Assembly (NCBI GenBank): GCA_947628135.1
Contig: CANQYT010000010.1
Location: 151-64,150 of the forward strand
Direction: 5' to 3'
From: an uncultured Clostridia bacterium
GTDB lineage: Bacteria; Bacillota; Clostridia; Christensenellales; CAG-314
DNA length: 64,000 nt
Shown here: positions 1 to 40,743 of the stretch, piece after piece
Layout of the letters: every line of letters starts with the position of its first letter
How positions within the stretch are numbered: the first letter of the stretch is position 1
Position numbers and translations under genes: made by a program
Notes under the pieces: generated by a model
Databases searched by the model: none
What the model was told of the DNA's origin: nothing
What the model saw: only the letters and a program-made list of their open reading frames with translations

Positions 1-101
1 ATGTTGAGTATTTTGCAAAATTACTGAAAAGCGAGATGATTGTTGCATAATCAAATCCTTTTCATAGGATTTGCTATGGAATAAAATTAAGGAGTCAGTA
101 T

Positions 102-716
102 ATGGCAGAAAAGGTGATTCGCTCACATAGAGCACGCGTCAAGCAGGCAAATGAAACGCTAAAGAACAATCCGCGATTTAAGCGTGAACGCATTTCGATT
201 ATCGACAGGGAAGCCTTTGTGGAATTTTTTCTTTTGGAGGATATTGTAAAATTATACAATATACGGCTAAGAGAGGAAAAAGCGTATATTCCTCGGGGAC
301 GTGCCGATGAAAAGGGGCGGCAGCAAAATATTGAAAAATTTTCCGCAATAATAGATGTTTTTAATGCGGCAATCGGTGCGGCAAGGTCCGCAATCAATTC
401 GGGAGATTACAAGCGCGTTTGGAAGGCGATTCACGAAGGTGCGCTGATGGCAACGGCTAATAGCGTCAGAAATTTGCCTGAATTGAAAAGGTTGGCAATA
501 GATTTGCTCAGAGAACTTTCTTCGGATATGACTTATTCTTTGGACGTGAGTCGGGAATTGGAGGAGGATCTCGATGATCTGGACGCTCACGAACAAAATG
601 TCCGTAAAGTCAAGAATCTTCCGCCGACAATGGATGAAATCGAAGAGGTCATCCGCGCGGCAGAAGCGGCAATACCGGACAGAAATAGAAACAGTAGAAT
701 AGATCCCAACACATAA
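102..716 (+). CDS. hypothetical alpha-helical protein (204 aa), basic N-half and acidic C-tail; possible second ESCRT-III-like subunit
   Basis: ORF with an AAGGAG RBS just upstream. First visible gene of a tightly packed same-strand operon. Same length and charge polarity as the adjacent Snf7-like ORF. Acidic helical tail EEDLDDLDAHEQNVRKVK...MDEIEEVIRAAEAA. No motif-level family match recognised. Confidence 0.6.
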   Translation: MAEKVIRSHRARVKQANETLKNNPRFKRERISIIDREAFVEFFLLEDIVKLYNIRLREEKAYIPRGRADEKGRQQNIEKFSAIIDVFNAAIGAARSAINSGDYKRVWKAIHEGALMATANSVRNLPELKRLAIDLLRELSSDMTYSLDVSRELEEDLDDLDAHEQNVRKVKNLPPTMDEIEEVIRAAEAAIPDRNRNSRIDPNT

Positions 717-731
717 AAAGGAGAGGTAACA

Positions 732-1346
732 ATGAGAAAAAAACAGACGAACGATGAGAAAATCATTTCTGCACTCGATGCATTGGACAAGTCCGTGCGA
801 AATCTTCAACAATTCGGAGCAAAATACGACCCATATATTGATGAGGCGGCTATCCGCGGCGACGACGCGCGGGCAAAACAACTCATAAAGCAAAAGATAC
901 GTATTTACGATCTTGTCGAACAACTAAAAACGCTCAAAAGTAACATCGAACTCGGCGCTTATACATCGTATGCGATTTCCGAACTCGGCAAGTTGCCTGC
1001 CGCGATTGCGGGGTGCAAGGGATTGCTGGCGGAGTCGCCGGATTTTTCAAAGTTGGGCAAGAGTATCACTTCGATATTTAAAGATATCGACAAGTCCGAA
1101 AGTGAGTTGGCAAAACTCAACGAAATACTCAATCCCAAACCTGCAGTAAGCATTCCAAGTCGATTGGACGGTGTCGCAGACGACGAAGCCTCAGATCAAT
1201 TCAAGGCAGAATATGCCGCTATGATCGAACGCGTCAAGGGCAAGGTCGCTCCCGAGGCGGTTGCAAAACCGAGCGGCACAGACGTAAACACAACGGGCGA
1301 CATCGACTATGCGGGCATTGTCGCCGAAGAAAACAAAAAGAAATAG
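732..1346 (+). CDS. Snf7/ESCRT-III-like protein (204 aa)
   Basis: GGAGAGG RBS. Length, basic N-terminal and acidic C-terminal polarity, and helical-hairpin pattern (AAIRGDDARAKQLIKQKIRIYDLVEQLKTLKSNIELGAYTSYAISELGKLPAAIAGCKGLL, then DFSKLGKSITSIFKDIDKSESELAKLNEIL) parallel the CHMP/Snf7 alpha1-alpha5 layout. Lies immediately upstream of a Vps4-like ATPase. Family call is by eye only. Confidence 0.55.
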   Translation: MRKKQTNDEKIISALDALDKSVRNLQQFGAKYDPYIDEAAIRGDDARAKQLIKQKIRIYDLVEQLKTLKSNIELGAYTSYAISELGKLPAAIAGCKGLLAESPDFSKLGKSITSIFKDIDKSESELAKLNEILNPKPAVSIPSRLDGVADDEASDQFKAEYAAMIERVKGKVAPEAVAKPSGTDVNTTGDIDYAGIVAEENKKK

Positions 1347-1352
1347 CGTACT

Positions 1353-2543
1353 ATGGCAGAAGCAAGTATGATCGGCATTTTTAATAGTAAGGTAAGCGCA
1401 TTTAACGAAGCCGTAAGTGCCGGTGATGTGGACGCTGTTTGTCAATTGGCTTCGGAAATGATCCAAATCTCCTTGGAACAGTGTGCCAATCCGAATGTCA
1501 GTACAACGCTCAAAGATACTTATCGTAAACAGTGCTTGGCAGTTACAAAGCATTTGGTACACTACGCAAAACGTACGCCCGTCGCTTCCTCCAATACGGG
1601 TGGTAGCGACGAGGGTTGCGCAGACCCCTACTATACTGAAAAAAATTGGTTCTCGGACGATGTGCCCAATCTGAATTTTACCAACATTATCGGAGTTCAG
1701 GATGTCAAGGACGCTTTTATGGTCGACGTCGTAGCCCCTCTGCGCTCTGAGTTTCAGGCAGTTTATCACAAATTCAGGGGCAATCAGCTTGGCACACAGA
1801 TTTTGTTGTACGGACCGCCCGGCACGGGAAAAACCCATATAGTCAAATGTCTTGCGGGTGCGCTTAATTGCAAAATCGCGGTAGTGCCCACAAGCGAAGT
1901 ATTGGCAAGTGTCGTTGGCGTGGCAGAGAAAAATATGCGAGACATTTTTGCGCAAGCCGAAAAACTCGATCGTTGCATAATTTTCTTTGACGAAATCGAC
2001 AGCATTTGTTCCGACCGAAGTAGCGATGATTCGCGGCACACCAAGTCGATACTTACCACAATGTTGACTTGTATGGACGGGTTTATGAAAACCAAAAAAC
2101 CCAACCAGTTGCGAATAATTGTTGCGGCGACCAACCTCCCTTGGAAGTTAGATGCGGCGCTAAAACGCGGCGGTCGGTTTGAAACTCAAATATATGTTCC
2201 GTTGCCGGACAAAGAGGCGCGCAAAAAATTTGTGGAACAGGATTTAACGCAAGTTCCTCACGCGTTGGATGTCACTGTGGAATATCTCGCAAACAAGTTG
2301 GAAGGTTACGCCGGTGCGGACATAAGGGCGGTAATGAAGCAAATTTCCAACGAGCCATTGCGTCGTGAAATATTGAACATAATGAAAACCGGCAAAGAAT
2401 GCGGCGAGATGGTTACGCTTGCCGACTGTGACAAAGTAATATCATCGTATATTAACGGCGTCAACAACGAGACGTTGCTGCGATTCAAAGCATACGATTT
2501 GGGTATTACATACGAGCAATTGCTTCAACAAATCAAGAGGTAA
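1353..2543 (+). CDS. Vps4/katanin-like (meiotic-clade) AAA ATPase with N-terminal MIT-like domain
   Basis: Walker A ILLYGPPGTGKTH and Walker B IIFFDEIDS. Second region of homology AATNLPWKLDAALKRGGRFETQIYVPLPD resembles Vps4 [27 protein letters not shown]. N-terminal about 75 aa is a three-helix pattern ending YRKQCLAVTKHLVHYAKR, like MIT helix 3 of Vps4. The pore-loop-1 position reads SVVGV, with no aromatic residue. Confidence 0.85.
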   Translation: MAEASMIGIFNSKVSAFNEAVSAGDVDAVCQLASEMIQISLEQCANPNVSTTLKDTYRKQCLAVTKHLVHYAKRTPVASSNTGGSDEGCADPYYTEKNWFSDDVPNLNFTNIIGVQDVKDAFMVDVVAPLRSEFQAVYHKFRGNQLGTQILLYGPPGTGKTHIVKCLAGALNCKIAVVPTSEVLASVVGVAEKNMRDIFAQAEKLDRCIIFFDEIDSICSDRSSDDSRHTKSILTTMLTCMDGFMKTKKPNQLRIIVAATNLPWKLDAALKRGGRFETQIYVPLPDKEARKKFVEQDLTQVPHALDVTVEYLANKLEGYAGADIRAVMKQISNEPLRREILNIMKTGKECGEMVTLADCDKVISSYINGVNNETLLRFKAYDLGITYEQLLQQIKR

Positions 2544-2549
2544 AACTAA

Positions 2550-3563
2550 TTGATCGATAAGGACAAAATTGCAACATACTACTCAAACGCACGGGAACTT
2601 GTTAAACAAAATAATCCCAAAGCGGCGAGGGCTTACGTTCTCGCCATTTTGAATTGTGCATTGGAAACATATCAAAAGGCAACTAAGATTTTGACAAAAG
2701 CCAAAACGCAAGCATTTTTGGACCAATGGATAAAAGTTTCTCGTGAACTTTACGACAAAGGTGTAACCGACTTTGTGTTAGGGTGTTTTGGTCTCCCCGT
2801 CAAGCAAGATTGTCAAGTTCCCAAAACAAAAGCCGATTCCGCGCAACAGCCGTCAAAATCTTCGTCGTCGCAAGGTAAGCCCGACACATCGTCGGTGGAT
2901 GAAGTAGACATTGCCGGTCTTGTTGAAGAGTGTGCAAAAACACAAGGTTGGTGTGCGGAGCAATTTGACAAGAACAAACGGGCTGTCGTGGAAATTTCCG
3001 CCTCCAACTCGCAAAAGAATTCGACCGGGACGGGATTTATCATATCGTCCAAAGGTTACTTGCTGACAAACGACCACATCGTATATGACGAAGACGCACA
3101 AGGTTACTATCCAAAAACCAAGATGTCACTTGCGGGAGGAAAAACCGTAAAGATCAACGTTCTGTTCTCCGACAAAAAGTCCGATGTGGCGCTTTGCAGT
3201 TTCGACCCCAATTCGGCGGGAAACTTCTCGGTGATCAAGCGAATCTCAGACTATTCTCGCGTGTTACAGGGAGCGGATTGCCTTGTGATAGGTAACGCTT
3301 TCGGTATGGGATTAGCGCCTTTTTCCGGTGTGGTTCGTTTTACAAAAAACGCCGAGGGAAATCTTGTGTATACTGCGCCGTCCAACCCCGGCGACTCCGG
3401 TGGTCCGGTATTGAACAGAAACGGCGAGTGCATAGGTATCAACAAGTCCAAGACGCTCACGGTGGACAATGTTTCGGCGGACGGCTACGTCAATGCAACG
3501 CCGATGGACAAAATTGAGGAGTTGCTGTACAAGTGGTGCGACGCAAACAACATTGAATTGTAA
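2550..3563 (+). CDS. cytoplasmic trypsin-like (S1/Trypsin_2) serine protease with N-terminal MIT-like helical domain
   Basis: TTG start with an AAGAGG RBS. Catalytic triad contexts: LLTNDHIV (His), SDVALCSF (Asp), GDSGGPVLNRNGECIGI (Ser). No signal peptide. N-terminal about 75 aa helical domain, then a Ser/Pro-rich linker carrying VDEVDIAGLVEE. Confidence 0.88.
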   Translation: MIDKDKIATYYSNARELVKQNNPKAARAYVLAILNCALETYQKATKILTKAKTQAFLDQWIKVSRELYDKGVTDFVLGCFGLPVKQDCQVPKTKADSAQQPSKSSSSQGKPDTSSVDEVDIAGLVEECAKTQGWCAEQFDKNKRAVVEISASNSQKNSTGTGFIISSKGYLLTNDHIVYDEDAQGYYPKTKMSLAGGKTVKINVLFSDKKSDVALCSFDPNSAGNFSVIKRISDYSRVLQGADCLVIGNAFGMGLAPFSGVVRFTKNAEGNLVYTAPSNPGDSGGPVLNRNGECIGINKSKTLTVDNVSADGYVNATPMDKIEELLYKWCDANNIEL

Positions 3564-3661
3564 AATAATTACTAAAATGGCATCAATCATAAAATTTCCC
3601 CGAAAGGTTCTTGGAGTAATTTGTTGTTTGGGTGAAAAATAAATATGGAGGGTAACTACAG

Positions 3662-4378
3662 ATGAAATATAGCATAAAAGAAGCAAAAGAAACAATTTTG
3701 TGTAATATTGATAGATTTCAGACAGATTCCAAGGAATTGTTACGAGTCGCTGTAAACTCACTCAATCGGTGTGGCGATGATTCGTCGCCTGTGTCAAGCA
3801 GATTAAACGACCTGTTGAACAATTTTTCAATCTTGGATGACTCCGGCAGGGAACGTTGGGCAGAAAATGTTTACATAGCTGTTGTTGCAATGAAGAGAAA
3901 AGATCTTTGCAAACAGGAAATCAAACAAAAGAATGGCAAAATAGATGGCGAGACGGCTCAGTGGATTACAACAGCGGTTCAAGGCGTGTTGGGGGTCGCG
4001 TCAGTTGTTTTTACGGTATTGTTTGCATTGGGTATTATCCCAAAAGATTCGTTTGGCGAATTGGGGGAAAATTCCGACGCATTTTATTATTTGATCGGAA
4101 CAATTTGTCAACAAGTTGTTGCATTTGTTATTGCGATTGTTATCGGTCTGTGGAATCGTTGTGTGATAAGAAAGAAATATGCCAACCAGACTTTCACATT
4201 TGAAGAACTTATGTCTGTCAAGTACGAAGGAAAACCCGTCAAATTTCTCATTCAACCGGTCACAAAGATGCTAAATGTAATGATTAGTATATTTAACTTT
4301 GGTGGTCAGACGATGGTAGTGGATAATCATGATGGCTCCAAGCCAACCGAATCGAATGAGGAGGAAAATAGCAGATGA
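3662..4378 (+). CDS. 2-TM membrane protein with N-terminal helical cytoplasmic domain (paralog of 11862-12647)
   Basis: GGAGGG RBS. Two hydrophobic helices (VLGVASVVFTVLFALGII and VVAFVIAIVIGLW). N-terminus MKYSIKEAKE and the WAENV motif are shared positionally with the 11862 ORF. Confidence 0.75.
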   Translation: MKYSIKEAKETILCNIDRFQTDSKELLRVAVNSLNRCGDDSSPVSSRLNDLLNNFSILDDSGRERWAENVYIAVVAMKRKDLCKQEIKQKNGKIDGETAQWITTAVQGVLGVASVVFTVLFALGIIPKDSFGELGENSDAFYYLIGTICQQVVAFVIAIVIGLWNRCVIRKKYANQTFTFEELMSVKYEGKPVKFLIQPVTKMLNVMISIFNFGGQTMVVDNHDGSKPTESNEEENSR

Positions 4379-6963
4379 CACAAAAAAAACAAACAAATAG
4401 AATATGGGCATTCGTCAATTTTGGAAGGCAGACAATTATAGATGGCGATTCGGCGTCGTTTTATAATTGTATGGAAGATATTCGTAAACAGTTGGCGCAA
4501 ATGGTGACCAAACAGGAGTTTCAGCAGTTTCAGAGTGCGATTAGTACACAACTTGGTAATTTACAACAAATTTGTAACAATATAAGTGACTTTAAACAAA
4601 AGAAAAAACTCGTTGATAAATTTGACGGAATGATACAATTGTTGCTTGAACAGAGTCAAGAGATACAAGCATGGACGCAACAAATCTCAAATATCAACGT
4701 GCAAAGTATGCTTGATGAGATTTCGGATGTTGCCACACAAGTCAAAGAGGAAATAAAAGACAAAAAAGAAAATCTTAAGAAACAGCAAACAAATCTTCAC
4801 AACGCAACCCAAAAAGCGCGTCCAAATAAAGAAGAGATTTTGCGTTATGCTGACATTGTACAGACCCAATCACCAGATGACTTTTTTGCAAAATTTTGTC
4901 AAGCACTTTACAGCGAAAATTATCGAGAGGCAATAGATTTTATAGATAAGATTGATGTTGAGCATCTCGAAAAAGATGTGTTAAAAGATACTCTCTGTTT
5001 TTTGATAAAGCTTATGCGCCGCGAATGGATTACACCTGCATCGGGGCTTATTGAACGTGCAAGTTTTGTTTTGGAAGATAATGAGGGTTCTTTTCGAGCT
5101 GCATATAGGACGCCATTTGAACAAAAAAAGAGACAAATTGACGAAAATGTTTACGGTATTCCGACGGGGCCATTTGTGTTTGTCGCTTATAATAGTGAAA
5201 ACGTTGTCCAGGTGTCGGAACTTGTTACATTTCTTGAAGAAACACCGGGCATCAAATGTTTTGTCGCTTTTAGAAATGTTGAGAATGGACTTGATAGCGG
5301 AGAATATATAGATAAACTTCACAAGGCGATGGAAAATTGCTCAATCTTTGTACTTTATTCGACATATAAGTCTCGCAACCAGGGCGGCTCCCTTGAAGAA
5401 ATGGAGTATATAATGAATGAAGATTACCATCGTGCTACACTAGCAGGAGAGCCCAAATATGACGCAAGAAGAGTCTACAGTGATCTTCCTGATGATTACA
5501 AAAAGCCCCGAGTGGAGTTTGTGCGGGAGACAAGACAATTAAATGAAAGAGACACCATTGCCGACAAGTTTTTTGGTACGACAACTCGTAGAACTGGAAG
5601 AGAGGAGTTGAAAAAAAGAATTCTTGAATTACTTCAGAACGAAAATCGCGACGATGCATCTACTCCGGAGCAAAGCGTGAAAGAAGCCCGTAAACCTACC
5701 GGAGATACGCACAAACACACCCCCAAACATTCGGCAAAACCCATAGTAGACAAAAAAAACAATGAGACTACGCAAAGCAAGTCTGATATAAATTCCTACG
5801 GCGAGCAAAAAAAAGAATCAGATTACAACAAGGAAGATGCCGAGAAAACGAGGATGAATCTGCTCTGCAAAAAAGCATTACGTGTTCTGTTGGAAAGAAA
5901 CGACGGCAAAGCTTCCATCGCGTCGATACAGCGCAATCTCGGAATAGGTTTCAACCGTGCGGGACGAATAATGGACACTTTACAGCGTTTGGGTTACGTA
6001 GAAACGCTTTCCCCAAGCGACCCGAGTTCCAAACCCTTGAAAGTGCTCATCACCCTAGAGGAGTTGGACGAACTGTTCCCTGATTTGAAAACGCAAGCAG
6101 TTGACCCCCCTATCCGATATACAATTACGTATTCCAATGTTAAAGGGGCAGCAAATTTCAATCCGACAGGTTACACAGTCAAAGATTTGCCCCTTGACGT
6201 CAAACCCATTGCAAAAGACGGCTATTCTTTTGTTGGTTGGTATGTTGATGAGGCTATGACAAAGGGTGTCACTCGACTTACGGAACAAGGCGACTATGTT
6301 TTGTATGCTAAGTGGATAAGACGGGTTGAACCAACCGACGAATTTTCAGAAGAAGCAAGGAAATACGTGTTGGGTTACACATCCGATGATATAGTGGACG
6401 GGTGTCTCTTATTCACCCCGAAGGCGGCTGGTAAAAGTTATGAGGTGCTAAAGTTACACAAGAGTGTGGAAAAATTGATTATTCCAAGGCAATTTGATGG
6501 ACTTCCGATAACAAGCATAGGCGAGAGGGCTTTCGATGGTTGTAGTAATTTGAAAGAAATAACTATTCCGAGCAGTGTCACAAGTATAGGCGAGTTGGCA
6601 TTCAGGGATTGCACCAATTTACAAACAGTGACTTTTGAGGACGACAGTAAACTACAAAGCATAGGCGATCTCGCTTTTAGCGGTTGTCACAATTTGCAAA
6701 CAGTTTATTATGGCGGGAGTAAGTACCAGTGGAAGAAAATTAAAATAGATTACAATGTTTCGATGTCGCCAAAGGTCAGACGCTATTACTTTTTTCATTA
6801 TTGGATCAAGTACCAGCGAAAGATACTTAGAGTATGTTACAGCAATTTTGCGTTGAAAAAAGCTAACCGCTATTATTATAGCGGGGAATTTCCGAAACGG
6901 AGCAAACGGTCTTTCTATTGGCATTGGGATGAAACAAAAACGCATCCGGTCATTTGGCAATAA
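4375..6963 (+). CDS. multidomain protein: coiled coil, TIR-like domain, FtsK-gamma winged helix, Listeria/Bacteroides (Flg_new) repeat, BspA-type LRR (LRR_5)
   Basis: ATGA overlap with the upstream gene and a GAGGAGG RBS. TIR-like block FVFVAYNSENVVQVSELVTFLEETPGIKCFVAFRNVENG...IFVLYSTYKSRNQGGSLEEMEY. FtsK-gamma signature SIASIQRNLGIGFNRAGRIMDTLQRLGYVE. Flg_new-like YTITYSNVKGA...GYSFVGWYVDEAMTKGV...YAKW. LRR_5 units IPSSVTSIGELAFRDCTNLQTV. No signal peptide or TM segment. Confidence 0.8.
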   Translation: MTQKKQTNRIWAFVNFGRQTIIDGDSASFYNCMEDIRKQLAQMVTKQEFQQFQSAISTQLGNLQQICNNISDFKQKKKLVDKFDGMIQLLLEQSQEIQAWTQQISNINVQSMLDEISDVATQVKEEIKDKKENLKKQQTNLHNATQKARPNKEEILRYADIVQTQSPDDFFAKFCQALYSENYREAIDFIDKIDVEHLEKDVLKDTLCFLIKLMRREWITPASGLIERASFVLEDNEGSFRAAYRTPFEQKKRQIDENVYGIPTGPFVFVAYNSENVVQVSELVTFLEETPGIKCFVAFRNVENGLDSGEYIDKLHKAMENCSIFVLYSTYKSRNQGGSLEEMEYIMNEDYHRATLAGEPKYDARRVYSDLPDDYKKPRVEFVRETRQLNERDTIADKFFGTTTRRTGREELKKRILELLQNENRDDASTPEQSVKEARKPTGDTHKHTPKHSAKPIVDKKNNETTQSKSDINSYGEQKKESDYNKEDAEKTRMNLLCKKALRVLLERNDGKASIASIQRNLGIGFNRAGRIMDTLQRLGYVETLSPSDPSSKPLKVLITLEELDELFPDLKTQAVDPPIRYTITYSNVKGAANFNPTGYTVKDLPLDVKPIAKDGYSFVGWYVDEAMTKGVTRLTEQGDYVLYAKWIRRVEPTDEFSEEARKYVLGYTSDDIVDGCLLFTPKAAGKSYEVLKLHKSVEKLIIPRQFDGLPITSIGERAFDGCSNLKEITIPSSVTSIGELAFRDCTNLQTVTFEDDSKLQSIGDLAFSGCHNLQTVYYGGSKYQWKKIKIDYNVSMSPKVRRYYFFHYWIKYQRKILRVCYSNFALKKANRYYYSGEFPKRSKRSFYWHWDETKTHPVIWQ

Positions 6964-6999
6964 GTGGAATATAGGTGATAAATTACGAAGAAGCAAAAA

Positions 7000-7307
7000 A
7001 TGACATTTGCAGATGAATTTCGTGAGAAGTATAGATTGGCGCTTCGGGCGGCGAGAGCAAACGATCGTGAGGCGACGCTTGCGGGATTGAAAGATTTGTA
7101 CGAACTTTTTGCTGCGCAGTACGCACTAAAAACGGCGACTCCGGTGGTCCGGCATTGAACAGAAACGGCGAGTGCATAGGTATCAACAAGTCCAAGACGT
7201 TCACGGTGGACAATGTTTCGGCAGACGGCTACGTCAATGCAACGCCGATGGACAAAATTGAAGAGCTGTTGAACAAGTGGTGCAAAAGCAATAATATTGA
7301 ATTGTAA
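7000..7307 (+). pseudogene. chimeric gene remnant: 5' end of the RuvB-like gene fused to the 3' end of the protease gene, frameshifted
   Basis: 7000-7139 is a near-identical copy of 10330-10470. 7134-7307 is a near-identical copy of 3390-3563. The junction is at a shared in-frame GGCGAC (Gly-Asp) hexamer. A 1-nt deletion just 5' of the junction (cttaacaacgg versus ctaaaaacgg) gives a TGA after 52 codons. No good RBS. Confidence 0.75.
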
Positions 7308-7345
7308 ATCTTGAAAGCGATATTACAACAAAAGGAAAACAAGTT

Positions 7346-10297
7346 ATGACGATTGATGACGCAATCAAAACTTTGAAACAAGTTTTAAATAAGCCCAGAG
7401 ACGAAAAAAGCGAAGAATTTGAACAAGTTGAAACGTCCGTAAAAAATAGCATAAATTTATTAAACTGTGTCAAAAACGACGTGCTGAAAAATCCAAAGGG
7501 TGGAGATTTTGAATTGCCGAATGAGATTGGACAGTATATTACTGGAATCGATGGCAAGTCGACGTATCCAATTTACGAAATAAATTTTCCATGGGCTGCA
7601 GAATTAAACAGAAGAATAGTGTGCGGTCTAAATGGGGATGAGGTAAAGAGGAGAATTAAATGGGATACTATTTCAAAGTGGTTAACTTTCATAGGGATAG
7701 TAATTACAATAGTGATTCTCATCGTGCTTTGTCGTTTTGTCGGGGATACCATGGTGTCGATCTCAGGGACTCTTCTTTCCGTAATCACTTCTTTCGTTCC
7801 TCTTTTGTTGGATCAATCACGCAACAAGAAGTTTTATCGTACCTACGGCATTTCTATCAAGGACATTAAAAGACCTCCGATTACCGATGAAGAATACAAA
7901 AAATATATCAAAGACGCGAGAAATCTATATAAGTCGCAGAATGTGTCGGAGAGGCCCAAATTTTTTAGGGAAGATATACGAGAAGCAAAAAAAATATATA
8001 ACAAATTGCTCAAAACAAGGAAAAATGACCCCAACTGTTATGTTGGGTTGCTTGCAGTCTATTCTAAGGGCTTTTCAAAATATTCCGGTAAGTTGAGGGA
8101 AGACTATTATATTCATAAGATTAACAAGTGGAAAGGTGATGAGAAGCATTCGCATTTAGATAAGGAGTACAAAAATGATTATACAACATATACGAAAAAC
8201 ATAGTTAAACCCTATCAAGAAAACCAAAAGCAAACCAAGACGAAAAAAAACGAACAACATAGCGAGCGTGTTGCACACGCCATTTTGGTCTGGCAAAAAA
8301 TTGGAATATGTGCTGTTCTGCTACTTCCAATAATTCTCTCGAGCGTGGTTTTGGCTTTGGTATATTGCTTACCCGTAAAGACATTTGACGATTGGACGGG
8401 TTGGCTACTCACGATTATCTTTGCATTGGATTGCCTATCTGTGATAGCGGTAATTGTGCTTTTGATAGTACTTATGGTAGCAGATAATCCGGATTTCTCC
8501 GGTTTTGTGGTGGAACCTGGTGGTGTATGGGCAGCGATATGTGGAATATGCGGGGGAACATATATAATTGCTAGTATAGAAATACCGTATTGGGTGCTAA
8601 TTCTGATAGCGGTTGTTTGCCTTGCTATGTGTTTAGCTTGTCTTATTTGGGGTCTTGTAGACACAGACACATGCAAACGGCGTCTTCTTCTTGTTTGCAT
8701 TTGTATTTGTAGCGTTTTGGTTGGTTGTGCGCTTTACAGCGGTGGCCGGACTTTCTCGGAATTTGAGTCATATTATACTGAAAACCCGGACGGAACATAT
8801 ACATATCTTGTTTGGGATGAGAATGTGGAAAATTTGCAAATCCCATCCGAATATCAAGGAAAACCGGTTACTGCTATCAGTCGAGCCGACAATGTCGATT
8901 TATCCCACCTAAAATCTGTATTCATCCCCGAAAGCGTGACGTCGATTGAATTCGGGGCTTTCTCCGGTTGTAGCGCGCTTACAAATATTACGGTGCCGTA
9001 CGTGGGATATTATGATATATCTGGAGTTAAAGATTACGAAGGTGAAGCGGAGACTTTGCACCCCCTTGGGCATTTGTTCGGCACTTCGCCCTACAGTGGG
9101 GGCGTAGCGACAGAGCAATATTACTGGGGAAAGTATCTCAGTGGTGATGATGCGGGCAGAGCTGAAATTTTTTACAACACTTACTATATTCCGGAATCAC
9201 TGAAACATATAACCGTACTTGGTGGCGAAGTTTGCAACGGAGCGTTCTATGGCTGTACAAATCTTGAAAGCGTCACATTGGGTGACGGAGTGACGGCGAT
9301 TGGCGAATATGCGTTTCGAGATTGTACTTCTCTTGTGAGCGTCGCCATTGGCGAGGGTGTTACCGGTATTGGGGAAAACGCTTTTTTGAATTGTAGTGGG
9401 CTTACGAACATATATATCCCCGAAAGTGTGACGTCGATCGAGTCGGGGGCTTTCTCCGGTTGTAGCGCGCTTACAAATATTACGGTGCCGTATGTGGGAT
9501 ATTATAATATAGCCGAAGTTACAGATTACGACGGCGAAGCGGAGACTTTGCGCCCCATTGGGCATTTGTTTGGTGCCTCGCCTTACAGTGGGGGCGTAGC
9601 GATAGAGCAACGATATATTTGGGGAAAGTATCTCAGCGGGGACGAGTCGGGCGAAGAATCTGTATTTTCCAAAACTTACTATATTCCGGAATCACTGAAA
9701 CATATAACCGTACTTGGTGGCGAAGTTTGTAACGGAGCGTTCTATGGCTGTACAAATCTTGAAAGCGTCACATTGGGTGACGGTGTGACTGCGATTGGCG
9801 AATATGCGTTTCAAGATTGTACTTCTCTGGTGAGTGTCGCCATTGGCGAGAGTGTTACTACTATTGGGAAGGACGCTTTTCTAAACTGCAATGCCGTTCA
9901 AAAAAACAAAGGCATTTTGTATGTTGGCAATTGGGTTGTCGGGTGTGATAACACTGTGACAGAAGCAGAACTATCAAATGATGCCACGGGAATTGCAAAT
10001 TATGCTTTTGCAGATTTCGCATCCCTTACTTCCGTAATCTTGAACGAAAACCTAAAAATTATCGGAGAGGGCGCATTTCAAGGAACAGGAATAACCACAA
10101 TGGTAATTCCACAATCGGTTGCGGTCATTGACGCCAATGCTTTTAGTGGGTGTACACTTTCAGAAGTTGTTTTTGATAATGTTGACGAATGGTATGCGGA
10201 CAAAACTTATGTACCGTATTCCGACCTACTTGATGCCACAAAAGCCGCAAGTTGCTTAACTTCGACATACGTCGAATGTGTGTGGAAACGCGGCTAA
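7346..10297 (+). CDS. polytopic (about 7 TM) membrane protein with N-terminal helical cytoplasmic domain and C-terminal extracytoplasmic BspA-type LRR domain
   Basis: 983-aa ORF with an AAAGGA RBS. Hydrophobic helices lie at about aa 115-160 and 315-470. C-terminal half consists of repeated LRR_5 units (IPESVTSIE.GAFSGCSALTNITVP, VTAIGEYAF.DCTSLVSV). Confidence 0.85.
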   Translation: MTIDDAIKTLKQVLNKPRDEKSEEFEQVETSVKNSINLLNCVKNDVLKNPKGGDFELPNEIGQYITGIDGKSTYPIYEINFPWAAELNRRIVCGLNGDEVKRRIKWDTISKWLTFIGIVITIVILIVLCRFVGDTMVSISGTLLSVITSFVPLLLDQSRNKKFYRTYGISIKDIKRPPITDEEYKKYIKDARNLYKSQNVSERPKFFREDIREAKKIYNKLLKTRKNDPNCYVGLLAVYSKGFSKYSGKLREDYYIHKINKWKGDEKHSHLDKEYKNDYTTYTKNIVKPYQENQKQTKTKKNEQHSERVAHAILVWQKIGICAVLLLPIILSSVVLALVYCLPVKTFDDWTGWLLTIIFALDCLSVIAVIVLLIVLMVADNPDFSGFVVEPGGVWAAICGICGGTYIIASIEIPYWVLILIAVVCLAMCLACLIWGLVDTDTCKRRLLLVCICICSVLVGCALYSGGRTFSEFESYYTENPDGTYTYLVWDENVENLQIPSEYQGKPVTAISRADNVDLSHLKSVFIPESVTSIEFGAFSGCSALTNITVPYVGYYDISGVKDYEGEAETLHPLGHLFGTSPYSGGVATEQYYWGKYLSGDDAGRAEIFYNTYYIPESLKHITVLGGEVCNGAFYGCTNLESVTLGDGVTAIGEYAFRDCTSLVSVAIGEGVTGIGENAFLNCSGLTNIYIPESVTSIESGAFSGCSALTNITVPYVGYYNIAEVTDYDGEAETLRPIGHLFGASPYSGGVAIEQRYIWGKYLSGDESGEESVFSKTYYIPESLKHITVLGGEVCNGAFYGCTNLESVTLGDGVTAIGEYAFQDCTSLVSVAIGESVTTIGKDAFLNCNAVQKNKGILYVGNWVVGCDNTVTEAELSNDATGIANYAFADFASLTSVILNENLKIIGEGAFQGTGITTMVIPQSVAVIDANAFSGCTLSEVVFDNVDEWYADKTYVPYSDLLDATKAASCLTSTYVECVWKRG
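8924..9885 (+). repeat. tandem duplication of about 492 bp (about 164 aa) inside the LRR gene
   Basis: 8924-9415 and 9416-about 9885 align almost base for base. Both run from ATCCCCGAAAG.GTGACGTCGAT through GGTGACGG.GTGAC.GCGATTGGCGAATATGCGTTTC, with one codon indel. Confidence 0.85.
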
Positions 10298-10329
10298 TAA
10301 ATTGTTAATGATAAAAAAAGGAGACACAT

Positions 10330-11859
10330 ATGACATTTGCAGATGAATTTCGTGAGAAGTATAGATTGGCGCTTCGGGCGGCGAGAGCAAACGATTGTGA
10401 GGCGACGCTTGCGGGATTGAAAGATTTGTACGAACTTTTTGCTGCGCAGTACGCACTTAACAACGGCGACAGCATTGTGGTAAAGGCAAAACTTTCCTAT
10501 TGGCAGGATGTTTTCGGCGGCTATATCCAACTGATCCGTACCAATGGATTGCAGGATAGGCGTGTGCAAAAATTTTTCGGTTTGATCGACGATTCGGACG
10601 TTCCTTCGCTGGGAGATTTTTTGAGCGGTAAAGGTGCGAACGCATTGCCACCGCAAGCCACGGAAACAACTCCTCCTTGTGATGTGGATATTGCAGGTAT
10701 AGTAGATGAAGATTTGACCGAGCAACCGTCGAATCCGCCGCAAGCCAAGCAAAATGAGCCTATTTTGAATAGTGAAGGGCAATCGCCGATAGGTTTGACC
10801 CCGCCGTCTATTGAGCAACTTCCTCAACGGCCCGTTGCGGTAAAAGAAGATGTCGCGCCTGCGTTTGACCATCCGTCTGCGGAAAAAGTGGCGACTCCCG
10901 CCTATGCGCCCGACAGTTTGGAACACTTCATTGGACAGCAGCACATTGTCAAAGTGTTGCTTAAAGAAATTGCCATTGCCAAGGCAGAGGGCAAGCGTCA
11001 TCTTGACAACATTTTACTTTTGGGTAATCCCGGTCTGGGCAAAACCACATTGATGAGGTTGATTGCCGCTCAACTTGGGGTTCGGTTTGAGTGGATGGAT
11101 TGTTCTCAGTATCGCAACAGTCGGCAATCAATGAAGGCGCTCCAAAATTTTTTGGTGCGAATTGCACGAGAGAGTGAACCGGTAGTTATCGGTTTTGACG
11201 AGATTCACTGCCTTCCCGATGAGTTACAGGAAAGTCTGCTTACGCTGTTGGAAAGCAGAGTGTATGTGTCGCCCCCGGATATAAACGGCAATGTAAAACG
11301 GATACCGATTGAAGAGTTTACATTTATTGCCGCAACGACAGATGACGACAAAGTAAAAAATACAATCAAAGACCGCTGTCTGCGACTTAAATTTCAACTT
11401 GTAGACTACACAACAGATGAGTTGGCACAGATATACAGAACAAAGATTTTTGCAAAAGGTCTAACCATAACGGAAGAAGCAATACAAATTTGCATACCGC
11501 GCAGCCGCGGCTCGATACGTTATGTAAATTCTTTTGTAGACGGGATGGAGCGAGAGTTATACGATACCAACGGCAACAAACTTTCCACGCATATTGACCG
11601 CGAAACGGCGTTGAGATTTTTTGACGAACGCGGAATTGACGAGATGGGGTTGGAAAACAAGGACCGCGAAATACTAAATACCCTTTATGAGGCGGCAACG
11701 CCCATGGGCGCGGAAACTTTGTCGGCGCGCGTGGGACTTGACCCCAAAAAGTACCTTTCCGAGTACGAGCCGTATCTCATTCGTATTGGCTTTGTGGACG
11801 TTTCCGGCAGGGGTAGAAGTTTGACAGAAAAAGCAAAAGAATATTTGAAGGAAGAATAA
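10330..11859 (+). CDS. RuvB-like AAA+ ATPase with N-terminal MIT-like helical domain
   Basis: AAGGAGA RBS. RuvB-type core FIGQQHIVKVLLKEIAIAKAEGKRHLDNILLLGNPGLGKTTL, Walker B VIGFDEIH, IAATTDDDKVKNTIKDRC. RuvB domain-III-like winged helix GLENKDREILNTLYE...YEPYLIRIGFVDVSGRGRSLT. About 200-aa N-terminal extension made of a helical domain plus a linker with CDVDIAGIVDED. Confidence 0.88.
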   Translation: MTFADEFREKYRLALRAARANDCEATLAGLKDLYELFAAQYALNNGDSIVVKAKLSYWQDVFGGYIQLIRTNGLQDRRVQKFFGLIDDSDVPSLGDFLSGKGANALPPQATETTPPCDVDIAGIVDEDLTEQPSNPPQAKQNEPILNSEGQSPIGLTPPSIEQLPQRPVAVKEDVAPAFDHPSAEKVATPAYAPDSLEHFIGQQHIVKVLLKEIAIAKAEGKRHLDNILLLGNPGLGKTTLMRLIAAQLGVRFEWMDCSQYRNSRQSMKALQNFLVRIARESEPVVIGFDEIHCLPDELQESLLTLLESRVYVSPPDINGNVKRIPIEEFTFIAATTDDDKVKNTIKDRCLRLKFQLVDYTTDELAQIYRTKIFAKGLTITEEAIQICIPRSRGSIRYVNSFVDGMERELYDTNGNKLSTHIDRETALRFFDERGIDEMGLENKDREILNTLYEAATPMGAETLSARVGLDPKKYLSEYEPYLIRIGFVDVSGRGRSLTEKAKEYLKEE

Positions 11860-11861
11860 AA

Positions 11862-12647
11862 ATGAGATATACATTATCTGACGCTGTGGAATTGTTGGAA
11901 GAACTTGAAAAAAAGACTAAAAATCCACATCTCGCATCGGCAAAATCGGTGCTCAGTGATCTAAAACCCTTATTGGGAGAAAACAAGGATATGGAGTCCT
12001 TGTCAAAATTATTTGAAAAAGGAGCACAATACGCCACGCAAGCAACAAGCGACGAGACGGTTGCAGCGGATGCGGACTTTAACCTTTGGGCGGAAAACGT
12101 AGCAAAAGAGATCTTGGAATATAAGGGTGAGTGTTGTAAAAAAATACAAGACATACACAATACATATGAATCGGCGCAGTCTTTTCTCGGTAAAAGTTTG
12201 AGTAACCGAAAAAAGACCGCAATCGGTTTTTTCATAGCCTTTATGGTTCTTTCAGTGATTACCGCCGTGGTTGCAATATATGGTCTGTTTTACCACAAAG
12301 AACAGTGGGGCGAAAGCCTCGCGAGCGTACTTGGAATTATCGATTTCTCGGTTGGAATTTGCGGGGTTTTTATCGAGCGTATCAACGATATGAGAGAACA
12401 AAAAATCAGCCGTGCAATGGAAGAAATTATGCGCACTCCCACCACCCAACCGGATAAAGCCGAAGAGTATGCGAAGAATATTAAAGCGGTTATAAAAAAG
12501 TCGGTTGTCGGCAATGGCAATGAGATTTACCATATAGATAATAATGCCCAGATAAATATTATCGAAAACAGCATTGAAACAAATAATGAAACACAAAGGA
12601 ATGTACGGCAATGGGAAGAGGAGATGAAATGGTGGCTCGAAAGATAA
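11862..12647 (+). CDS. 2-TM membrane protein with N-terminal helical cytoplasmic domain (paralog of 3662-4378)
   Basis: GAAGGAAG RBS. Two TM helices (AIGFFIAFMVLSVITAVVAIYGLF and VLGIIDFSVGICGVFI). Shares the MRYTLSDAVE and WAENV positions with the 3662 ORF. Confidence 0.75.
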   Translation: MRYTLSDAVELLEELEKKTKNPHLASAKSVLSDLKPLLGENKDMESLSKLFEKGAQYATQATSDETVAADADFNLWAENVAKEILEYKGECCKKIQDIHNTYESAQSFLGKSLSNRKKTAIGFFIAFMVLSVITAVVAIYGLFYHKEQWGESLASVLGIIDFSVGICGVFIERINDMREQKISRAMEEIMRTPTTQPDKAEEYAKNIKAVIKKSVVGNGNEIYHIDNNAQINIIENSIETNNETQRNVRQWEEEMKWWLER

Positions 12648-14395
12648 TTAAATCTACCGTGGGCAATTATAATAGAGTATTCTTTCTACGAAATCTAAAA
12701 GGTGGCACAATAAACTTAAGTCAACTTCCAAACGAGTGGAAAGAATATGTGGACGAGAAGTTCCGTGCGCAAGGCGAACTACTCACGTCCCTACCGGAAG
12801 ATGTTCGGCAAATTGTATATTCGGCGGTAGTGTCCGGTATGGAAAACGTCGCCACGAAAATTGCCCACGAGCGATGCTTGCATGATAAAAACATTGATAG
12901 AGTTGAGGATATTGCAGTTTCATTAGATGAGATGAAACAGCACGAAGAAGAAATCTTTGACAACATCCTAAATATACTGAACAAAGGTCAGTTAGAAACA
13001 AACAAACGCATTGCCGCATTGCAAGAGTTAAATGAGCAGCTTCAATTCAATACTCGCAAGGCTATGGTTTATTACGAGGAGATTCTCGCAGAAATTCGTT
13101 TGGGCAAAGAGCGCATTGATGAGATTATTATTCTTGAAGAGGGAAATTCTATTGCAATAGGGGATATTAAAGAGGATATAAAGGATTTAAAAACAAACCT
13201 TGAAAACATAATATTTCGTTTCATACAACTTTCGGAAAAAAGACATGAAGAATATCAGTCAGCGCGCGCCTTGATAGATAAAGAATTTGGAAAAATCTCT
13301 TCTCTGGGATTGGATGGGCATACGATTTCGGAAATGCGAGGGTGGCTTCAAGGATTATCGAAAAAAAACAAATCTGATATTGAGAAGAGCATCAAACAAC
13401 AAGGAGATAATCTTTCTAAAGAATTATTGTTTATAAACGAAAATTTGAAAGACATCGCAAGTTCTCTCAATAGTTTGGGACGAGGACAAGAGTTAACGGA
13501 TGGCGAAATAAAACGGCTTTCCCAAAAAGCGGAAGAGATTCTTCAAAGAGAAGTAAAACTTTATGGTCTTGCATTGGACACAAATCAAACGACACATCAA
13601 ACATATGAAAAAACACAGGAAATTTTCGACTATTTAAAGGATATTCTCGTTCCGGTAGCAGACTTGGAAGAAATTTGGAGGAAGGTTTTGCAAAACACAA
13701 ATGGACCAGAAGAGGAAAAATATAAACAAAAATTAAATGAGAAAATTTGTAAACTGCAACAAAGTGCAAAAGCAATGGAACTTCAATTGCAAATCGCAGC
13801 GCAAGAGGGTGGGGCTGTCGAGGAGGCGTGTCCCTATTGTGGTTATGTTGAATTGCGCGGAATCGTTGGAGATAAGTGTCAATGTGATTGCTGTGGCAAA
13901 ACTTTCAATCGAAAAGATGTAAACCTAAAAGAGGTAGACGAATGGCGCCAAAGACACACTGCAAAATTGGAAAATGTTTACTGTATTAAAGAGGAGGACT
14001 CTTCTAAAACTCATTACTTTTGCAGAATGAAGCTGGACCAAAATACAGTCAGCCACAAGGGTGTTTTGATAATCCCATCAATTCCTCCAGAAACAACCGT
14101 CCCGGAAACAACTGCACCAAAAGTGTGGTTTGGTGATAAACTCACGCTTTCTGATGGCAAAGTCAAAATTGCTTTTTGTAAACCCAACATCGATGATGAG
14201 GTTGGTTTGGAAAGAATGCGGCGAATCAAAACGTTGATATTGCCAAGCAATATATTTTTGACCAAGTTCAATGATGCATTTCCATTTTCAGAGGGGATAG
14301 ATGACTTGGAAATGGTATTGCGATTTGATGAAAAAGAGAAAAAGTGTACATTAGACAAAGAAACATTAAAGCAAATTAAAAAGGAGAGTGTATAA
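12611..14395 (+). CDS. long coiled-coil protein with internal CxxC...CxCxxC zinc-ribbon
   Basis: 594-aa ORF. An alternative start ATG at 12629 has a better GAGGAG RBS. Heptad-rich central region. CPYCGYVELRGIVGDKCQCDCCGKTF motif. Confidence 0.75.
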   Translation: MGRGDEMVARKIIKSTVGNYNRVFFLRNLKGGTINLSQLPNEWKEYVDEKFRAQGELLTSLPEDVRQIVYSAVVSGMENVATKIAHERCLHDKNIDRVEDIAVSLDEMKQHEEEIFDNILNILNKGQLETNKRIAALQELNEQLQFNTRKAMVYYEEILAEIRLGKERIDEIIILEEGNSIAIGDIKEDIKDLKTNLENIIFRFIQLSEKRHEEYQSARALIDKEFGKISSLGLDGHTISEMRGWLQGLSKKNKSDIEKSIKQQGDNLSKELLFINENLKDIASSLNSLGRGQELTDGEIKRLSQKAEEILQREVKLYGLALDTNQTTHQTYEKTQEIFDYLKDILVPVADLEEIWRKVLQNTNGPEEEKYKQKLNEKICKLQQSAKAMELQLQIAAQEGGAVEEACPYCGYVELRGIVGDKCQCDCCGKTFNRKDVNLKEVDEWRQRHTAKLENVYCIKEEDSSKTHYFCRMKLDQNTVSHKGVLIIPSIPPETTVPETTAPKVWFGDKLTLSDGKVKIAFCKPNIDDEVGLERMRRIKTLILPSNIFLTKFNDAFPFSEGIDDLEMVLRFDEKEKKCTLDKETLKQIKKESV

Positions 14396-19410: not shown

Positions 19411-19974
19411 ATGGCTAATAACACAGAACCGTTTTCTTGGGAGTATTCACTTCAACACAACACCGTCAATATTTTCGGCACGATTGACGATGCAAAGGCG
19501 GAATTAATCATTGCCCAATTGCAGTATCTGGATAGCAAGGGCGCAAATGAGATCGTTGTACAAATAAACAGCCCCGGCGGAAGCGTATCGGCAGGGTTCG
19601 CTATTTACGACACCATTAATTACGTCAAGGCACGTATCGTCACCGTGGGGATAGGTATGTGCGCCAGTATGGGGGCATTTCTTCTCTCGGCGGGGAGTAA
19701 AGGCTGTCGTAGGGCTACGGAAAACTGTGAAATATTGATTCACCAACCGCTTGGGGGTGTAAGTGGACAGGCATCCGATATGATTATTGCAGCCGATCAT
19801 ATCAAGCGTATGCGGGATCATATAAATCGTATTCTTGCCGTTAATACGGGACAAACAGTAACGAAAATCAAAAAGGATACGGACCGCGATAAAATTATGA
19901 CTGCGCGTGAGGCCCTTGAATATGGGCTCATCGACAACATTATTATGTCCGTCAACAAAGCACAAGGAGAATAG
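19411..19974 (+). CDS. clpP: ATP-dependent Clp protease proteolytic subunit (island-encoded paralog)
   Basis: Classic ClpP sequence. Catalytic contexts: GMCASMGAFLLSAG (Ser), ILIHQPLGG (His), DTDRDKIMTAREALEYGLID (Asp region). Confidence 0.93.
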   Translation: MANNTEPFSWEYSLQHNTVNIFGTIDDAKAELIIAQLQYLDSKGANEIVVQINSPGGSVSAGFAIYDTINYVKARIVTVGIGMCASMGAFLLSAGSKGCRRATENCEILIHQPLGGVSGQASDMIIAADHIKRMRDHINRILAVNTGQTVTKIKKDTDRDKIMTAREALEYGLIDNIIMSVNKAQGE

Positions 19975-23328: not shown

Positions 23329-23613
23329 TCCGGGCGGGAGGTAACCAGGCAGGATACTTGTGGGCATTGTGCGGTAAATCAAACAATGATTTAATTGCCC
23401 AATGACTGAATTGTTAAGTAAAGACTATAAATTAAAACTTCCTGCTTTTGGTAATTACAAATTCGATTTGTCAAACTTTGCGCTAAGCAAAAGCCTAATG
23501 GACATTTACTCAACGTGTGTTCGTGCCGCAAAAGAAGTTATACGTACAAGTTCGCGGTGTAAGTATTTCGTGAATTTGCGGCACTCCAAAATATAACATC
23601 AGGAGAATACAAA

Positions 23614-25480: not shown

Positions 25481-25548
25481 AAAACTTTACAAAACGTAAA
25501 GTTTTTGACGAAAAATACTTTACAAAACGTACAGATTGGTTGTATAAT
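25481..25548 (+). promoter_or_regulatory. candidate operator pair plus promoter for the sipW/GLUG operon
   Basis: Perfect palindrome AAAACTTTAC-aaaac-GTAAAGTTTT at 25481-25505. A 15-bp direct repeat ACTTTACAAAACGTA occurs at 25484-25498 and 25517-25531. The second copy overlaps a TTTACA (-35), 18-nt spacer, TGTATAAT (extended -10, 25541-25548). Confidence 0.5.
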
Positions 25549-26246: not shown

Positions 26247-26247
26247 T

Positions 26248-40742: not shown

Positions 40743-40743
40743 T

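Follow-up and report, generated by a model that had tools for sequence, protein, structure and literature searches.

Immunity in animals, in plants and in bacteria alike draws on Toll/interleukin-1 receptor (TIR) domains. The closest described systems are the bacterial TIR defence proteins, such as ThsB of Thoeris and the single-gene TIR proteins of Escherichia coli, of which those with transmembrane (TM), AAA or TPR parts protect E. coli against phages (PMC11350192). According to the same 2024 survey, TM and leucine-rich repeat (LRR) features of the Toll-like receptor (TLR) type seem to be absent from bacterial TIR systems (PMC11350192). Here, we analyze a protein of 862 amino acids (the target) encoded at positions 4375-6963 of a 64,000-nucleotide stretch (the window) of contig CANQYT010000010.1 from an uncultured Clostridia bacterium. 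It joins a TIR domain to a winged helix of the FtsK-gamma type, a Flg_new repeat and BspA-type LRRs (LRR_5). With moderate confidence, we read the target as a cytoplasmic TIR sensor-effector that is carried as cargo by a mobile element and used against phages or rival mobile DNA.

The target has in common with the bacterial TIR defence proteins the TIR fold, a conserved Glu (in the target, a candidate catalytic residue), a variable non-catalytic module fused to the TIR domain and a location on mobile or variable DNA. It differs from them by a family-specific helical domain in front of the TIR domain and by its unique gamma winged helix, while BspA-type LRR_5 is the commonest partner domain of its family. 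Bacterial TIR sensor-effectors are already known as a kind; what is new is the architecture of the target as a variant. The target is not a Thoeris ThsB system. No ThsA-type partner (SIR2, or TM segments with SLOG) adjoins it, and among its neighbours PADLOC matches only IetA-like and protease models.

Other known proteins each resemble a part of the target. SARM1 and TIR-1, which pair a regulatory helical domain with a TIR NADase, are the top Foldseek matches over the combined helical and TIR module, and the D-x4-E spacing before the Glu is common to the family and to SARM1. Unlike these proteins, the target has no SAM domains, and the overall superposition has a root-mean-square deviation of about 18 Å, so that similarity of the helical part to SARM1/TIR-1 is not established. 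TLRs also hold LRRs and a TIR domain in a single chain, but the order is inverted in the family (TIR-TM-LRR) and the LRRs are of the BspA-type LRR_5 rather than the typical TLR type; common descent of the two architectures is not implied. The target itself lacks a TM segment and so does not qualify as a TLR; nor is it an NLR or other STAND protein, because Pfam finds no NTPase (no NACHT or NB-ARC) in it. As to the NLR/TLR logic that, in the first-pass annotation, such a protein would echo, the membrane-bound half of the LRR-bearing relatives has a topology that is TLR-like and not NLR-like. Flg_new often accompanies BspA-type repeats, and the LRR module is structurally alike to that of BspA-like surface proteins (6mlx, 4gt6, 4fs7); in the target, however, it is attached to cytoplasmic domains, without signal peptide or anchor. 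FtsK/SpoIIIE gamma domains read KOPS/SRS sites and activate XerD. The target gamma domain matches both the Pfam family and FtsK gamma structures, but is detached from the translocase motor and has Glu replaced by Asp in the recognition helix.

Domain architecture of the target

The TIR domain of the target is real, being a member by fold and by transitive homology and not by its own Pfam score. TIR_2 (PF13676) is matched at residues 268-350 (E 2.7e-4; model positions 1-79 of 122). An exhaustive HMMER search with residues 150-470 retrieved 485 clusters at E <= 1e-3, of which 370 also reach E <= 1e-10, the target aligning to its relatives at E 1e-33 to 1e-21. TIR_2 is matched in 58 of the 59 relatives scanned (E <= 1e-4; best E 1.4e-19). 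The profile search also returned relatives with precomputed PF13676, one of which is named 'toll/interleukin-1 receptor domain-containing protein [Clostridia bacterium]' in nr. Against the sequences of the PDB, all 20 matches of the family profile and nine out of ten matches of the target alone are TIR domains, and hhalign aligns the family to the SARM1 TIR domain from beta-A to beta-C at E 1e-4.

The structure predicted by AlphaFold2 (AF2) on the family alignment has a mean predicted local distance difference test score (pLDDT) of 81, and above 90 in the core. It comprises a six-helix N-domain followed by a beta-alpha-beta-alpha-beta-alpha-beta-alpha succession: strands at residues 268-271 (beta-A), 295-297 (beta-B), 324-329 (beta-C) and 379-383 (beta-D), and helices at 274-288, 308-321, 338-356 (alpha-C), 393-400 and 409-426. 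The TIR strands and most helices reach a pLDDT of about 85-95, while BB-loop residues 304-307 stay below 50. Foldseek matches in the PDB include SARM1, MAL (template-modelling score TMt 0.67), TIR-1, TcpB, PdTIR, MyD88, the SPARTA TIR domain, AbTir, RUN1 and TLR1, with a TMt of 0.69 for MyD88 and 0.72 for AbTir with 3AD (full-length model), and of 0.60 for TLR6; the fold-related nucleoside 2-deoxyribosyltransferases are matched as well. The TIR-like block of the first-pass annotation is thereby borne out by family homology and by the modelled fold alike. The motifs that it had picked out (FVFVAY, CFVAFRNV, IFVLYS and EEMEY) coincide in the family alignment with beta-A, beta-B plus the BB loop, beta-C and the first part of alpha-C. 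In the relatives, this alignment contains the textbook TIR motifs PRDVFVAYSSxD, CFVAxRNLxHG, FVFVSSxNSR and CDAxxxELPY. The catalytic Glu for which it had proposed to look has a candidate in Glu342, a conserved acidic residue in the expected place. AF2 sets it in the first turn of alpha-C, a helix that the sequence alignments to solved TIR domains do not reach.

The reading frame is intact over its full length. A strong ribosome-binding site (GAGGAGG) lies about 10 nucleotides 5' of the ATG. This start codon and the stop codon of the preceding 2-TM gene share the tetranucleotide ATGA, making co-translation of the two genes probable. The same pair occurs in a 91%-identical variant locus (L001), and the 2-TM gene has no match in Pfam, PADLOC or NCBIfam. 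Promoter and terminator scans around the target gave nothing better than shuffled sequence. In a Kyte-Doolittle scan of the target, the highest 19-residue mean is 0.84 and the N-terminus is polar. Given this profile, the target has no signal peptide, TM segment or anchor by hydropathy (not by a dedicated signal-peptide predictor), in agreement with the signal-less protein first proposed; no export signal that would make it a surface adhesin was detectable.

The flanking modules were likewise placed correctly in the first reading. The N-terminal coiled coil is predicted by AF2 as long helices; it has no homologue among the family members and their loci, and Pfam yields only weak coiled-coil noise. 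No Pfam family matches the helical domain that follows, in which the PDDFxAxF motif is represented by P167, D169, F170, A172 and F174. Beyond the TIR domain, FtsK_gamma (PF09397) is matched at residues 499-559 (E 4e-12; 46 bits, the gathering score being 30.6) and FtsK gamma of P. aeruginosa and E. coli at E 3e-4, with 2j5o and 2ve8 as PDB matches. The recognition helix IGFNRAGRIMD aligns with IGYNRAARMIE of these two structures, the N and R of IGxNRAxR being kept. The XerD-FtsK-gamma fusion structure 5dcf is also among the matches, and neither an FtsK alpha/beta motor nor a P-loop domain is found in the target by Pfam. The closest relative of this gamma domain is the C-terminal gamma domain of another gene in the window, at 23614-24666 (58% identity over 71 residues, E 6e-25). 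Flg_new is matched at E 2e-8 in the full protein, E 1e-9 with the isolated segment and E 4e-7 by TIGR02543; AF2 left it unfolded (pLDDT about 25) and the last 70 residues at low pLDDT, in a part where the alignment has no depth. LRR_5 is matched at residues 712-778 (E 7e-18), with three DNA repeats of 69-75 nucleotides at 6513-6699. AF2 models the LRR module at a pLDDT of 92-96, and Foldseek aligns it to TpLRR (6mlx, E 7e-7), to 4gt6 of F. prausnitzii and to 4fs7 of Bacteroides (E values up to 1e-4, 26-31% identity). All Pfam domains of the target but TIR_2 are above threshold. The tail ends in a motif that jackhmmer finds at the C-termini of seven LRR-bearing family members.

As a full-length protein, the target matches only itself among 5.8 billion sequences, all other matches covering the LRRs only. 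Exact copies lie on three contigs, and sequence-word matches occur in rabbit-gut metagenomes. Judged by these sequence comparisons, the target is a one-off mosaic and its FtsK-gamma fusion is unique. The coordinates of its domains and of the surrounding features are given in Table 1.

Table 1. Position and basis of the features of the target and its surroundings in the window.
Feature	Residues	Positions	Strand	Basis or remark
Upstream cassette gene, 238 amino acids, 2 TM segments		3662-4378	+	Target is its 3' neighbour
Target open reading frame, 862 amino acids		4375-6963	+	Single uninterrupted frame
N-terminal coiled coil/long helices	1-150	4375-4824	+	AF2 helices 3-146, pLDDT 55-70
Family-specific helical domain	150-262	4822-5160	+	PDDFxAxF motif; AF2 pLDDT >90
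TIR domain	263-425	5161-5649	+	Sub-threshold TIR_2, family homology, AF2/Foldseek
Candidate catalytic residue Glu342 (codon)	342	5398-5400	+	Family-invariant; codon checked
Linker, charged and low-complexity	426-494	5650-5856	+	pLDDT <50 for 429-478
FtsK-gamma winged helix	495-565	5857-6069	+	Pfam and PDB FtsK gamma matches
Flg_new (Listeria-Bacteroides repeat)	582-646	6118-6312	+	Pfam, TIGR02543
BspA-type LRR_5 module, about 4-5 repeats	678-790	6406-6744	+	Pfam, DNA repeats, AF2, Foldseek
C-terminal tail, basic and aromatic	791-862	6745-6963	+	Low pLDDT
Insertion of 6.75 kb with two cassettes, between trypsin-like and RuvB-like genes		3565-10317	+	blastn against related elements
Recombination scar between the cassettes		6988-7308	+	RuvB-like 5' copy fused out of frame to trypsin 3' copy
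Cassette-2 gene, 983 amino acids, 7 TM segments, C-terminal LRR_5		7346-10297	+	Open reading frame, Pfam, hydropathy
Element gene, 350 amino acids, C-terminal FtsK-gamma, adjoins VirD4/TraG-type coupling protein gene		23614-24666	+	Domain search

A family of TIR proteins and the departures of the target

The family was sampled at several depths: it holds at least 485 HMMER clusters, while 59 members were scanned with Pfam, 150 were listed, 148 entered the conservation analysis and 174 the count of architectures. Its members typically consist of a zinc ribbon (CxxC...CxxC), a short linker, the conserved helical domain, the TIR domain and a variable C-terminus, the shared module spanning about 270 residues and starting about 70 residues from the N-terminus. 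The N-terminal ribbon is present in around 90% of the 150 listed relatives; the target lacks it and carries about 150 residues of coiled coil or long helices in its place. Among the 59 scanned members, LRR_5 is the C-terminal domain in 26, and others carry DUF6273, Sel1, TPR, TM2, L7/L12_C, MORN or RCC1. The family is confined to uncultured Clostridia from gut and rumen (among them Oscillospiraceae and Christensenellaceae) and to some Bacilli (Anaeroplasma, Erysipelotrichaceae). Several paralogues per genome are usual, with up to five family loci, and tandem pairs occur. We found no description of the family or of a bacterial architecture combining TIR_2 and LRR_5 in the literature searched, subscription journals lying outside its coverage.

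LRRs occur in 86 of the 174 members, about 41 of which have at least one TM segment between the TIR domain and the LRRs. Thirty-two members have one dominant TM segment C-terminal to the TIR domain; in these, 181 Lys and Arg residues lie on the N-terminal flank of that segment compared to 38 on the C-terminal flank, and the N-terminal flank is the richer one in 31 out of 32. By the positive-inside rule, this bias places the TIR domain in the cytoplasm and the LRRs outside. Around 41 of the 174 members, about a quarter (e.g., P0013, P0022, P0047 and P0053), thus have an inverted TLR-like topology, TIR(in)-TM-LRR(out), with a poly-Lys stretch before the one TM segment and an extracellular LRR_5 part of up to 1,700 residues. 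The other 45 or so LRR-bearing relatives combine a cytoplasmic zinc ribbon, TIR domain and LRR_5 without any TM segment. The intracellular LRR sensor with a TIR effector that had been suggested for the target therefore finds partial support at the level of the family: TIR and LRR_5 go together in about half of it, and about half of those proteins have no TM segment. Within the family, the LRR module of the target is short. Flg_new is present in only two other members, and an FtsK-gamma domain in none of the other 174.

Glu342 is fully conserved in the 148 relatives compared and is kept in the target. Of the 55 columns with a conservation of 85% or more, the target agrees with the family at 42. 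It retains the invariant F269, N301, Y311, A318, S329 and R334, the 99%-conserved Y272 and R300, and the family motifs YKKPRVE and FF that follow the Glu (K376, K377, R379, E381, F399, F400). S333 is also kept, so that five of the nine near-invariant polar TIR residues are retained. The variant locus L001 stems from the same metagenome set and encodes a protein that is 91% identical at the amino acid level. Its gene (L001:1005-2385) is split by a frameshift, owing to a deletion of two nucleotides at codon ~391; at a contig coverage of 2.6x, this may equally be a sequencing error or a real pseudogene. Between target and variant, the ratio of nonsynonymous to synonymous substitution rates (dN/dS) amounts to 0.41 overall, with values of 0.20 for the TIR domain, 0.61 for the helical domain and 0.71 for the coiled coil, all from small counts. 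The low value for the TIR domain points to constraint on it.

Genomic setting of the target and of its relatives

The G+C content of the window is 39-45% from position 1 to about 26,000 and about 53% thereafter; a sharp step from about 42% to about 54% at ~25500-26300 marks the right end of an island. Chromosomal genes lie beyond it (metK 33455-34639, recD2 34649-36934, secA 37671-40742 and prfB 40690-41838). No tRNA gene is present in the window; attachment sites were not sought. In order, the island encodes a 204-residue protein, a Snf7-like protein, an IetA-like AAA ATPase, a trypsin-like protease whose N-terminus is helical, the 2-TM protein, the target, the 7-TM LRR_5 protein and a RuvB-like AAA protein, and further along an Hsp70/ParM-like protein, a ClpP-type protease, a VirD4/TraG protein and the gamma protein. 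The AAA ATPase matches the PADLOC model of IetA (E 1e-34). The Snf7-like gene (732-1346) has a sub-threshold Pfam match (E 5e-5) and 248 homologues; the 120 listed are 71-88% identical, about half of them with precomputed Snf7. A Snf7-family gene beside a classical AAA ATPase on a mobile element recalls ESCRT-III/Vps4.

In 17 related loci at varied chromosomal sites of gut Clostridia, the Snf7-like gene stands directly behind a tyrosine integrase or at a contig edge before it (L066). All 15 related loci that reach past the trypsin gene share the block of integrase, 204-residue gene, Snf7-like, AAA, trypsin and RuvB-like genes. As this integrase-led block recurs at different chromosomal sites, it belongs to an integrative mobile element. 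The opening block corresponds to 102-3563 and 10330-11859 of the window (loci L062-L078), and its RuvB-like AAA protein has a winged helix-turn-helix. Four of these loci (L062, L063, L065, L066) are collinear with the window by blastn over 101-3546 and then over 10328-11793, and this jump identifies what lies in between as an insertion. It consists of two cassettes, one with the 2-TM gene and the target and the other with the 7-TM LRR gene. The scar between them is composed of a 95% copy of the first 143 nucleotides of the RuvB-like gene (6988-7130, from 10318-10460) and a 92% copy of the last 176 nucleotides of the trypsin gene (7133-7308, from 3389-3564). Each cassette is thereby flanked by a trypsin 3' end and a RuvB 5' end, the expected product of unequal recombination between elements with different cargo at one spot.

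In the second cassette gene, a cytoplasmic helical N-terminus precedes the seven TM segments, and its LRR region has undergone a recent tandem duplication of about 490 nucleotides (8919-9398 against 9411-9893, 87-89% identical). Farther into the island, the VirD4/TraG-type gene and the gamma gene occupy 21628-24666, and no further conjugation genes are recognised. The Hsp70/actin-fold (ParM-like) protein and the ClpP-type protease are encoded at 15181-16956 and 19411-19974, respectively, and the large open reading frames 12611-14395 and 19978-21621 have no detectable family. A phage origin of the island was rejected: PHROGs gave generic matches only, with no capsid, terminase or tail genes, and a viral fold library gave nucleoside 2-deoxyribosyltransferase-like matches, none at E <= 1e-3. 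Paralogy between cassettes and element was also discarded, comparisons of 3662-4378 with 11862-12647, of the target N-terminus with 12611-14395 and of 7346-8800 with 11862-12647 giving nothing significant. That the AAA, trypsin and RuvB-like proteins begin with MIT domains was likewise discarded: Pfam finds none at their N-termini even at E <= 1.

Relatives of the target have a recurrent neighbourhood of their own. In L022 (2189-11872, uncultured Clostridia), an operon encodes a small helical protein (183 amino acids), the same helical domain joined to FtsK alpha/beta (628), an AAA ATPase (412; 30% identical to the AAA ATPase of the window), a zinc ribbon-TIR-LRR_5 protein (1202), a zinc ribbon-Sel1-trypsin protein (370) and an SPFH-zinc ribbon protein (280). 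The small helical and helical-FtsK genes also stand beside family TIR genes in L007, L018, L044 and L051, together with the AAA gene in the first three but not in L051. Operons of this type, from Clostridia and Bacilli and with one or two TIR proteins, contain several components with N- or C-terminal zinc ribbons. They have the appearance of a multi-gene system that has not been described so far. In both L004 and L035, a TIR-LRR_5 gene is directly preceded by an FtsK-like gene, which has a gamma domain of its own. Across 58 loci, the gene adjoining the family gene encodes an FtsK motor in eight, an AAA protein in seven, a small helical protein in six, an SPFH protein in three and a trypsin in two. 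The resulting 14% adjacency to FtsK far exceeds the 1-2% expected by chance, a value that is our rough estimate, given the few FtsK-type genes per genome. With PADLOC, the FtsK-like proteins of sister loci match SspH (E 6e-54), the AAA proteins IetA (E 5e-40) and the proteases the RT-protease and LmuA models. An ESCRT-III identity of the small helical proteins or FtsK N-termini was set aside as unproven, their family profile finding no ESCRT-III, PspA or Vipp1 structure in the PDB; by hhalign, the small-helical profile matches neither the window genes g732 and g102 nor the target N-terminus. The genes of the element in the window include those for an AAA, a protease and a Snf7-like protein; an FtsK motor is missing, and the target carries a gamma domain instead. 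This fusion may be an echo of the FtsK/AAA/protease partnership. The first-pass annotation had seen in the gamma domain a possible nucleic-acid sensing input; its kin in the same element and the family genes beside FtsK-like translocases rather suggest a link to a DNA translocase or recombinase than generic sensing.

Proposed function of the target and competing explanations

From these observations, we infer an enzymatic activity, a ligand, DNA binding and a biological role for the target along the following lines. The Flg_new and LRR_5 module would bind a protein ligand, while the gamma winged helix would serve as a tether, either to double-stranded DNA or to a DNA-handling partner (for example, an FtsK-like translocase or the Xer-type integrase of the element). 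Ligand binding, aided by the N-terminal coiled coil, would gather the TIR domains by oligomerisation, and the assembled domains would then cleave NAD+ or a related nucleotide via Glu342, leading to growth arrest or a signal in conflict with phages or competing mobile DNA. A cytoplasmic location is indicated because the target has no signal peptide or TM segment and the TIR side of its TM-bearing relatives is cytoplasmic. The sensor-effector logic is supported by the joining of one TIR module to LRR_5, Sel1, TPR, MORN, RCC1 or other repeats and by the paralogues and tandem pairs, and the role in conflict by the position of the cassette in an integrative element, the IetA-like and protease neighbours, the operons of sister loci and the phage protection that single-gene TIR proteins give to E. 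coli.

Several observations weigh against this sensor-effector reading. With 21.9 bits, the target falls short of the gathering score of TIR_2, which is 28. Four polar residues that are near-invariant in the family have changed: R266P (100% R in the family), D276N (99%), H304N (96%) and D339S (97%). Their positions are within or adjoining beta-A, the AA loop, the BB loop and the stretch before alpha-C, all of which help to form TIR active sites. With these residues lost, TIR activity of the target cannot be assumed, and its catalysis may be lost or altered. The 91% variant has the same four replacements. Four positions before the Glu, the family has no aromatic residue, unlike SARM1 and AbTir with their W. 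No PADLOC defence model matches the target, which speaks against any known defence system, and its relatives match ThsB models only weakly. Around three quarters of the family loci have no FtsK, AAA or protease neighbour. Lastly, the lack of a full-length homologue and the flanking scars indicate that the domain combination is young.

These replacements make a non-catalytic TIR protein the main rival, although we consider it unlikely. The target would then be an adaptor or decoy that assembles with canonical family paralogues of the host and regulates them or, as cargo of the element, blocks the TIR-based immunity of the host against that element. TIR domains act via homotypic assembly, family-bearing genomes usually hold several paralogues and the gene is carried by a mobile element, all of which fits such a role. 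Yet Glu342 and most core positions are retained, the window contains no family paralogue and the TIR domain is under purifying selection by its dN/dS, which would fit an adaptor too. A further explanation, which we judge somewhat less probable still, makes the target an accessory of the DNA handling of the element, the gamma domain being directed to element DNA, to the Xer-type integrase or to the coupling protein and the TIR domain serving the element rather than the host, as a toxin for addiction or exclusion. The similarity of the gamma domain to that of the element protein beside the VirD4/TraG gene, the tyrosine integrase with which related elements begin, the XerD fusion among the PDB matches and the FtsK-like translocases next to family genes in eight of 58 loci all point this way. 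However, none of the 15 related loci reaching past the trypsin gene has the cassette, which therefore does not belong to the element core, and no other family member has a gamma domain.

The youth of the architecture could also mean that the target is a functionless mosaic, a recent by-product of recombination that is heading to decay. Its uniqueness among 5.8 billion proteins, the scars of illegitimate recombination directly downstream, the frameshift in the sole variant seen and the poor folding of the Flg_new segment and the tail in AF2 are consistent with this explanation, which is nevertheless doubtful: the 862-codon frame is intact with a strong ribosome-binding site and translational coupling, the gene is identical on three contigs, dN/dS is low overall and lowest in the TIR domain, every Pfam domain but TIR_2 is above threshold and the frameshifted variant, coming from a thinly covered contig, is possibly a sequencing error. 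Least likely of all, and very improbable in our view, is a surface adhesin that reaches the outside by non-classical export and displays LRR_5 and Flg_new as in BspA-like proteins. Both repeats are characteristic of proteins on the cell surface, the structures that match the LRR module best are TpLRR and 'cell surface' LRR proteins, the probably co-translated upstream gene encodes a small 2-TM protein and the element encodes a coupling protein of a type IV secretion system. This is outweighed by the missing signal peptide, TM segment and anchor, by the cytoplasmic nature of TIR and FtsK-gamma domains, by the topology of the TM-bearing relatives and by the many relatives that pair a zinc ribbon, TIR and LRR_5 inside the cell.

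Beyond the sensor-effector reading of the target itself, we tentatively consider that the family as a whole, in gut Clostridia and some Bacilli, consists of receptors that have not been recognised as such. In such a family, the helical and TIR module would be combined with interchangeable sensors and work with a membrane machine of FtsK, IetA/Vps4-like AAA, trypsin and SPFH/Snf7 components, for which the gamma fusion of the target would be the 'Rosetta stone'. The wiring may run across the membrane (TIR(in)-TM-LRR(out), TLR-like) or be intracellular, and the gamma fusion of the target may couple recognition of double-stranded DNA directly to TIR activation.

The pattern across the family and its link to FtsK, AAA and protease genes are more interesting leads than the target itself. 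The target leads to a family of hundreds of clusters in which TIR domains are fused to BspA-type LRRs, either behind a membrane or in the cytoplasm, and it implies that 'surface' repeats such as LRR_5 and Flg_new can serve inside the cell. If these proteins are active, the family would offer a tractable bacterial model for LRR-to-TIR signalling across a membrane and a new class of multi-gene conflict system, and the target would be a natural fusion pointing to a coupling with DNA or a DNA translocase.

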